Source: Leucoraja erinacea
Lineage: Eukaryota
NCBI RefSeq assembly: GCF_028641065.1
Contig: NC_073401.1
Coordinates: forward strand, 24,304,001 to 24,368,000
Direction of reading: 5' to 3'
Length of the DNA: 64,000 bases
Positions within the stretch are counted from its first letter, which is position 1. Each line of letters starts with the position of its first letter. Under the pieces are notes generated by a model. That model saw nothing but the letters and a program-made list of their open reading frames with translations. It searched no databases and was not told where the DNA came from. Below, one piece after another: positions 42,632 to 44,034 of the stretch. A program made the translations under genes and the position numbers.

Positions 42632-44034
42632 ATGTTGGGGCTACTTCTGGTACTTCTGCTCCCAGGTAACGTGTCTCTCCCCCGCCTCAGCCTTGCCTTG
42701 GATGTTGCTCGCTTGATGTTCTAACGTGTTTGTTTCTGTCAGGTTGCCTCCCCCCTGGTGTAGCCGGCGGTGACACTGAGTCCCTTCAGCCCAGAGACCT
42801 CTGGCGGTTCAACAAGTTGATTAAGTGCGCCATACCAGGGAGCATCCCACTTTTAACCTTCAACAACTACGGATGTTACTGCGGGCTTGGTGGACAGGGG
42901 GAACCGGTGGATGATCTGGACAGGTGGGTCAATGCAGAGGTCTGTCTGGAGCCGGGTCACACACATTGCAGGCCAGGGCTGGCTCTGGCCCAGACAATAG
43001 TTTGTCTACATTTACTGAAGCTGCAGGATTGAACCTTCACTGCAGGCCGTTCATTCTTCACATTCAGAATATCCCAATAGATTTTCCCATGAGCTGTGAA
43101 ATGTATGTTTTATGAAATATTCTTGGGTGCCACTGACTTATTGTCGCCTAGGGTTTGGAGCCATTCTAGTTTACAGATACAGTATGGAAACAGGCCATTT
43201 GGCCCATCGGGTCCATGCCAACCATCGTTCACACTAGTCACAGTCCCGGCACACAAGGGGTAATTTACAGAGCACAATTAACCTACAAACCCACACGTCT
43301 TTGGGGTATGGGGGGGGGAAACTGGAGCACCTGAGTTTAGCACCTGAGGAAACTCATTGGGTCACAGGGAGAACGTGCAAACTCCACACAGATATGACCC
43401 GAGGTCTGGATTGAACCCGGGTAACAGCAACTCTACCGCTGCGCCACCGTGCCGCCCTCACTGTTCCTGCCTGACTTCAGGCAGCTCCTGGTTGCAAGCA
43501 TTCCCATCCCACAATGAGTCTCCCACCCCACCGCCCACAGGTCCAATGTGGATCTCAAACCTGCTCAGGCTGGTTCCGCTCTGATCACCTCGGGACTATT
43601 TTGCTGCATATGATGTTTGTGCTGCTGCAAACCATCAGTCAAAGTGTTGTGTTGATCATGGTTGCAGTGTTTCCTACCTGACATGACCCATGTTTTTGCA
43701 GGTGCTGTCAGACACACGACAAATGTTATGGCGCGGCTTCGAAAATGGGCTGCACATTTCTCAAGAACCCCAAAGCTGTGGGCTACAAGTTCACCTGTTC
43801 AGAAAAGACCGTCACTTGCGACAGTGAGTATGGTCCAGGAGATGCTTGGAAAATTCTTTTCTTCACAATCCATGGGCAATATGTTCTAAATAATGCGTTT
43901 TCTGTTTCTTTTCAGGTAAAAATAATAAATGTGCGAAGTTTGTCTGTGAATGTGATAGCAATGCGGCCGCTTGCTTCGCCAAAGCATTTCCCACGTACAA
44001 TCCAAAATACAAGGGTATGAAGAAATGTAAATAG
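42632..44034 (+). CDS. PLA2G1B: Group IB secretory phospholipase A2, copy 3 (inverted); exons 42632-42665, 42743-42923, 43702-43823, 43916-44034; 151 aa
   Basis: Same exon sizes. Mature [122 protein letters not shown]; intact frame. Confidence 0.95.

Follow-up and report, generated by a model that had tools for sequence, protein, structure and literature searches.

A tandem family of cationic, short-loop PLA2G1B paralogs in the skate Leucoraja erinacea, with a possible role at anionic membranes

The stretch of DNA analyzed here (the window) comprises 64,000 nt of the skate Leucoraja erinacea (contig NC_073401.1; C25:24304001-24368000) and contains three intact genes for group I secreted phospholipase A2 (PLA2), referred to as copies 1, 2, and 3. 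PLA2G1B is usually a single-copy gene for a near-neutral digestive enzyme; the expansion known best is that in the venom of elapids. Judging from their sequence features, the skate copies are group I enzymes of PLA2G1B descent, and their products are cationic. The segment from 43702 to 44034 runs from exon 3 of copy 3 through its stop codon on the + strand. Copy 3 has four exons, every intron is GT-AG, and the spliced product is 100% identical to database protein P0005, which is labeled phospholipase A2-like from Leucoraja erinacea. The splice between exons 2 and 3 was supported by one RNA-type contig and one raw read. The main features of the locus are as follows.

42478..42631, + strand: copy 3 proximal promoter and 5′ untranslated region, with consensus matches only, to E-box (CAGCTG), GATA, TGACGT, and TATA motifs
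42632..42665, + strand: copy 3 exon 1, 34 nt encoding signal peptide, with a GT donor; the coding sequence is identical across copies 1 to 6
42743..42923, + strand: copy 3 exon 2, remainder of the signal, propeptide ending in Pro-Arg, helix 1, and Ca-binding loop
43702..43823, + strand: copy 3 exon 3, hypervariable, with His48/Asp49, helix 2, shortened pancreatic loop, Lys69, and beta-wing
43916..44034, + strand: copy 3 exon 4, helix 3 with Asp99, Ser100, basic C terminus, and stop; the intron 3 splice is present in a contig
23972..25322, - strand: copy 1, intact, net charge +11, exons 25322-25289, 25211-25031, 24304-24183, and 24090-23972
34538..35889, - strand: copy 2, intact, net charge +11, exons 35889-35856, 35778-35598, 34870-34749, and 34656-34538
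21519..40726, no strand assigned: two units in tandem, each of ~10.5 kb, one with copy 1 and the other with copy 2; their identity is 98.2% across 8672 aligned bases
42001..44398, + strand: inverted unit carrying copy 3, which in blastn is 94-95% identical to the copy 1 and copy 2 units

Copies 1 and 2 may be the result of a recent duplication, or they may be alleles, i.e., two haplotypes assembled in tandem, because the 1.8% difference between the two units is close to the heterozygosity of 1.6% reported for this species (PMC10115646). The multi-copy status holds without counting the two separately.

The match to PF00068 scored 126.8 bits compared to a cutoff of 32.1, which places the copies among the secreted PLA2s of groups I/II/V/X. 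By the Cys pattern and C-terminal tail that define groups I and II, according to PMC9862071, they fall in group I, with Cys11 and Cys77 present and neither Cys50 nor a C-terminal extension. As in group IB, a basic residue precedes the mature N terminus; the propeptide ends in Gln-Pro-Arg (residues 27-29) and aligns with porcine pro-PLA2. The five-residue pancreatic loop of group IB (residues 62 to 66) has a counterpart that is one residue short, and group IA is described as lacking five residues of this loop (PMC13320979). Membership in group II was rejected, since residue 50 is Lys, the chain ends one residue past the last Cys, where group IIA has an extension of 6-7 residues, and both the Cys11-Cys77 pair and a propeptide are found. 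Group IIA enzymes are not known to have a propeptide.

The mature proteins of copies 1 to 3 (122 residues, 14 Cys) differed from group IB in several ways. First, the sum K+R-D-E was +11, +11, and +9 for copies 1, 2, and 3 (calculated pI 9.04, 9.05, and 8.91), and the extra positive charge was located chiefly in residues 52 to 77 and the C terminus. Second, the Cys51-Cys61 and Cys61-Cys77 spacings were 9 and 15, respectively, compared to 10 and 16 in pig. Third, residue 69 is Lys (D-P-K, D-P-K, and N-P-K), residue 100 is Ser in place of Arg, and two residues are inserted near residue 108 relative to pig. An earlier, sequence-only reading of this DNA had reported the same charges, the same D/N-P-K motif, the shortening of the loop and of the segment before it, and the change at residue 100, and all of these were seen again when recomputed or compared to pig; it had overlooked the insertion near residue 108. 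Lys69 is probably common to several secreted PLA2 groups, as the skate Cys50-type genes described below suggest, and is not known to be a bactericidal determinant by itself. The parts needed for catalysis are intact. His48, Asp49, Tyr52, Tyr73, Asp99, and the calcium loop (Tyr28/Gly30/Gly32) are conserved in all five full skate copies, and a predicted structure (mean pLDDT 80.6) best matched bovine and porcine pancreatic PLA2 with a root mean square deviation of ~1.5 Å. With this fold match and these residues, the skate copies should be active Ca-dependent enzymes. Trp3 was retained in copy 3 only; copies 1, 2, 4, and 6 have no Trp.

The cluster continues past the end of the window with four further genes, so that in total it holds five short-loop genes that are full, a truncated one, and a canonical PLA2G1B. 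Copy 4 is intact, has a net charge of +11, and corresponds to P0010, copy 6 is intact with a net charge of +2 and Ala69 and corresponds to P0008, and copy 5 (C25:24,379,411-24,380,578) ends within exon 3 and has no exon 4. A separate canonical gene, which the sequence-only reading had advised looking for, was found at C25:24,390,089-24,393,444 with a full loop, Asn-Pro-Tyr69, and a net charge of -7; it shares the cluster with the short-loop copies, which places them at the PLA2G1B locus. Its mature protein is 53-58% identical to the derived copies. In the derived copies the splice acceptor lies 21 nt farther upstream than in the canonical gene, which adds 7 residues to the signal region (window 42743-42763), and this stretch is covered by a contig. 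A second acidic Tyr69 group I gene (net charge -5; exon 1 not modeled) lies 2.7 Mb away at C25:21,580,373-21,583,478. In this gene, Tyr28 of the calcium loop is replaced by Asn, a change common to three shark orthologues (branch support 100/100). In the annotation, the shark orthologues are joined to a further partial PLA2 domain (211 aa), and no skate counterpart of that domain was found within 70 kb.

To place the skate copies, 63 mature proteins (125 columns) were used for an unrooted tree. Copy 5, being truncated, was excluded, as were a model with a retained intron, two models that are fusions, the first half of each of three fused shark models, and a lizard sequence. All 26 short-loop sequences fell on one side of a branch with support of 100/98, and they came from seven genera, all of them batoid: Leucoraja, Amblyraja, Rhinoraja, Pristis, Hypanus, Hemitrygon, and Mobula. 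The set made up of these sequences and the five batoid canonical genes was separated from the rest with support of 94/84. The batoid canonical genes as one clade were not rejected in an approximately unbiased test (p=0.18), which allows more than one branching point for the short-loop family.

Some marks of the family were general and others were not. The shortened Cys61-Cys77 spacing (15; 13 in one protein) marked all 26 of the 26 batoid short-loop proteins, and His48, Asp49, Tyr52, Tyr73, and Asp99 were likewise retained in 26 of 26. The Cys51-Cys61 segment was shortened in the 10 short-loop proteins of Leucoraja and Amblyraja, as well as in the second-locus gene, which is unrelated to them, and Ser100 was found only in Leucoraja copies 1 to 4. 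Residue 69 was Lys in 19, Ala in 3, Thr in 3, and Ile in 1 of the short-loop proteins, compared to Tyr in 36 of the 37 others. The net charge of the short-loop proteins had a median of +8 (range, -4 to +16; at least +8 in 14 of 26), whereas that of the 37 other group I proteins had a median of -2 (range, -16 to +2; at least +8 in none), these being related sequences and not independent observations. Among the best 120 of 1208 matches there were six shark sequences from five species, all with Tyr69, and no chimaera sequence. The shark orthologues had net charges of -5 to +1. Together with the acidic Tyr69 genes of the skate, this goes against the refuting condition of the sequence-only reading, namely that all single-copy chondrichthyan orthologues share the traits. 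This distribution suggests that the short-loop family is restricted to batoids (skates, sawfish, and rays). Since acidic Tyr69 genes coexist with the skate copies and the shark orthologues carry Tyr69, the cationic and short-loop traits are derived and do not characterize cartilaginous fish as a whole, which makes the cationic copies additional paralogs, free for another role.

The skate copies differ mostly in their coding sequence. Of the 24 variable mature positions in copies 1 to 3, 15 lay within porcine residues 53 to 83, where 5.7 were expected (binomial P=6e-5, for a segment picked after the data were seen); the concentration of changes at ~53-83 had been pointed out from the letters alone. 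Among the five full copies, variable columns made up 25% of the mature coding sequence (93/369) and 33% of exon 3 (40/122), compared to 5% of the noncoding sequence (49/1010) and 0% of the signal and propeptide (0/87). Between copies, introns differed by 1.0-3.0% and the proportion of nonsynonymous differences (pN) in exon 3 was 4-27%, exceeding intron divergence in 15 of 15 pairs. Between Leucoraja and Rhinoraja, the canonical gene was 87% identical and the short-loop proteins 62-71%. In the tree, Leucoraja copies paired with differing Amblyraja proteins. This suggests gene conversion of the introns, and the coding lineages appear to be older than their near-identical introns. Snake venom PLA2 genes, which are reported to combine conserved introns with fast exons (PMC7285919), show the same excess of exon over intron variation.

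Such quick change of the mature surface would fit a non-housekeeping role. It might also be that no new function was gained, with redundant duplicates drifting as constraint relaxed and a gene conversion that spares exons making the exon-intron contrast. This would suit the many pairs in which pN is about equal to the proportion of synonymous differences (pS), the truncation of one copy, and the variation in charge and residue 69. However, drift would not be expected to keep the catalytic residues in 26 of 26 proteins, to cluster the changes in one surface segment, to leave the signal and propeptide invariant, or to retain the family in seven batoid genera, and we regard this explanation as improbable.

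The proximal promoter is common to all copies and the canonical gene. For instance, the canonical gene and copy 3 differ at only 10 of 144 upstream bases, and the sequence of exon 1 follows the species, not the gene type (canonical or derived). With a propeptide ending in Arg and a promoter shared with the canonical gene, the copies are likely secreted to the gut as trypsin-activated zymogens. Contig set X1, taken by guess to be RNA, contained spliced pieces over introns 2 and 3 at a depth of ~4. The X1 exon 3 matched copy 5 at 9 of 10 listed differences, yet it was joined to an exon 4, and the X1 exon 2 matched no assembled copy. This suggests an unassembled allele or paralog, and copy-number or allelic variation is possible given the truncation of copy 5 in the assembly. 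The raw RNA runs X11, X13, X14, X17, and X20 gave 0-3 reads per base over the exons and, carrying no tissue label, are silent on the site of expression; run X2 was flagged as probably DNA.

The propeptide and the shared promoter and exon 1 would also be expected if the copies were digestive specialists, i.e., extra pancreatic isoenzymes tuned to dietary phospholipids or anionic bile-salt micelles, like the duplicated digestive ribonucleases of leaf-eating monkeys. Lys56 and the surface loop change substrate use in pancreatic PLA2, as the titles of PDB entries 1bpq and 3p2p state, and in catshark embryos, pancreatic pla2g1b is reported to increase along with trypsin (PMC8923501). However, protein divergence of up to 33% compared to 1-3% in introns, together with the unassembled transcript variant, suggests ongoing turnover and not a one-time dietary shift. 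The family also occurs alike in skates, which are benthic, and in Mobula, which is a filter feeder. Digestive specialization is unlikely, although it deserves some weight.

The surroundings of the cluster contained no further PLA2 exons within 224 kb, except for one weak tblastn match at window 14125-14208 that was rejected; it overlaps an intronic repeat match and has no PLA2 motif. Other repeated segments in the window were a 3.8-kb segment of 90% identity flanking a 100-base N gap (51406-51505) on both sides (47304-55153), pieces of the copy 1/2 upstream flank in both orientations (58740-61752), consistent with the inversion of copy 3, and a tandem duplication of ~1.3 kb with 97.7% identity (4204-6828). 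TRIAP1 was found ~200 kb from the cluster, and PXN and a large sirtuin exon were more than 1.1 Mb away; TRIAP1, PXN, and a sirtuin gene are neighbors of human PLA2G1B. Searches for the COX6A and GatC families and an RNA-binding motif scan of the cluster flanks for MSI1 gave no match, so fine synteny rests on TRIAP1. THOC5, a flanking gene of the snake locus, is 8 Mb distant in the skate. Elsewhere in the genome, two apparently intronless Cys50-type secreted PLA2 genes with basic cleavage sites and long C termini were found at C18:35.603 Mb and C34:5.506 Mb. The one on C18 has a net charge of +14 and, by eye, Lys at the position equivalent to 69, and is a candidate bactericidal enzyme. A second expanded cluster, with at least three Cys50-type genes that are presumably group X-like by their motifs, lies at C20:7.91-7.97 Mb (also C393 and C1717).

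We favor the explanation that the copies are enzymes of the gut, activated by trypsin and adapted to anionic membranes, with defense as their likely purpose, and hold it tentatively, at a little under even confidence. PLA2G1B would have been duplicated in a batoid ancestor, with shortening of the loop and the change of Tyr69 to Lys. Gene conversion would then have homogenized the promoter, exon 1, and introns while selection retained surface variants. The enzymes would be expressed in the pancreas or gut, secreted, and activated by trypsin, and their positive surface would steer them electrostatically to anionic phospholipid, the putative targets being negatively charged membranes of microbes or parasites. 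A preference for anionic surfaces is expected because the added charge lies in residues 52 to 77 and the C terminus. Cationic charge is reported to underlie the killing of Gram-positive bacteria by group IIA (PMC3024238), and mouse PLA2G1B to kill helminth larvae (PMC5644720). Purified stingray pancreatic PLA2 is reported to bind the anion exchanger Mono-Q at pH 8 (PMC3050761), and its published N terminus resembles, by eye, that of the skate second-locus gene; the acidic genes may therefore account for most of the digestion. A bolder version of our explanation, which we consider doubtful, is that the batoid duplicates form a diversifying gut-defense arsenal, a group IIA analogue on a group I scaffold that evolved its exons in the style of venom genes, with no venom gland, and with bacteria or tapeworms of the gut as opponents in an arms race. 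As for the non-digestive role proposed in the sequence-only reading, derived paralogs with a fast mature surface agree with it and the trypsin-type propeptide and the promoter shared with the canonical gene do not.

Several observations weigh against a defensive role. First, the charge is not conserved; copy 6 reaches only +2, and the family as a whole extends down to -4. Second, just 2 of the 15 pairs had pN above pS in exon 3 at P<0.05, and 1 of 15 did over the whole mature region (uncorrected and non-independent tests), and second positions did not differ significantly from four-fold sites (31/118 versus 3/26, P=0.13). Positive selection, i.e., a nonsynonymous rate (dN) above the synonymous rate (dS), is thus not formally demonstrated from these sequences, and intron conversion combined with relaxed constraint could yield an equal exon-intron contrast. 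Third, the regions upstream of copies 1, 3, 4, and 6 contained no strict bipartite PTF1 site, and X1 had no contig over canonical exon 3, which weakly questions co-expression with the short-loop copies. Finally, the group IB enzyme of mammals is placed last for potency in killing bacteria (PMC7583969), and the separate cationic (+14) group II/X-type skate gene could fill a bactericidal role. Both the antimicrobial activity and the tissue of expression are hypothetical at this stage.

A venom-like, skin-mucus, or anticoagulant protein, in parallel to the recruitment of PLA2G1B in elapids, is very improbable. The elapid architecture of a canonical gene beside derived copies with a shortened exon 3 (according to PMC13320979) and the snake-like pairing of conserved introns with fast exons do recall the skate cluster, and D49 PLA2 transcripts were reported from stingray spine tissue. 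However, the same study found PLA2 activity to be minimal or absent in stingray venom and suggested a non-venom origin (PMC8781517). The trypsin-type propeptide indicates the gut. The family is also carried by skates and sawfish, which are not known to have a venom apparatus. Residues 54 to 77 are the anticoagulant region of venom PLA2s; for the anticoagulant role that the sequence-only reading had touched on, no support was found.

In literature searches covering mostly titles and abstract openings, no description of this batoid expansion was found, nor is PLA2 mentioned in the main text of the paper on the skate genome. The proteins were already annotated as PLA2-like, and the closest precedent is the elapid cluster as described in PMC13320979. 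If true, another expansion that arose independently and bears the same signature, but in fish that are not venomous, would mean that the pattern needs no venom. The copies would also provide natural variants for asking how membrane preference depends on surface charge, residue 69, and the pancreatic loop. The short-loop family may include the gene behind the reported "group IIA" antibacterial PLA2 of stingray intestine.

Compared to known systems, the skate copies are closest to group IB (porcine 1hn4/1p2p, bovine 1bp2, human 3elo), which was the top match by sequence and structure. They share its four exons with a 34-nt first exon, propeptide, Cys11-Cys77, 14 Cys, catalytic network, and fold, and are 55-57% identical to the pig enzyme. 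Unlike group IB, they are multi-copy, carry net charges of +9 to +11 (about -2 in IB) and Lys69, change rapidly at the surface, are one residue shorter in both the loop and the end of helix 2, and have the insertion near residue 108. With group IIA (human PLA2G2A, chicken) they share a cationic surface and Lys69, the latter as in human IIA (PMC7583969), and copies 1, 2, 4, and 6 also resemble the human IIA interface in missing Trp. They differ in having the Cys11-Cys77 pair and a propeptide and neither the disulfide between Cys50 and the C terminus nor the tail. They are Lys-rich with 1-4 Arg, and their charges and pI of ~9 fall short of the pI above 10.5 reported for human IIA (PMC8658914) and the net +16 of chicken IIA (IB, +1; count including His; PMC3024238), although calculated values cannot be compared strictly with those from the literature; a few short-loop relatives do reach +14 to +16. 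Therefore, of the "group II-like chemistry" that the sequence-only reading had proposed, the cationic character and Lys69 stand, whereas the disulfide and the tail of group II are missing, only 19 of the 26 short-loop proteins have Lys69, the charge is below that of chicken IIA and spans -4 to +16 across the family, and the skate has separate genes of group II/X type. By analogy, the skate copies may work like IIA without being IIA. Finally, the cluster is like those of elapid group I venom genes (IA/IB) in its tandem expansion beside canonical PLA2G1B with a loop deletion in exon 3 (as described in PMC13320979) and in exon divergence that outpaces the introns (as in PMC7285919), and unlike them in a deletion of one loop residue rather than five, an independent batoid origin, a promoter shared with the canonical gene, and the lack of any known venom gland in skates.
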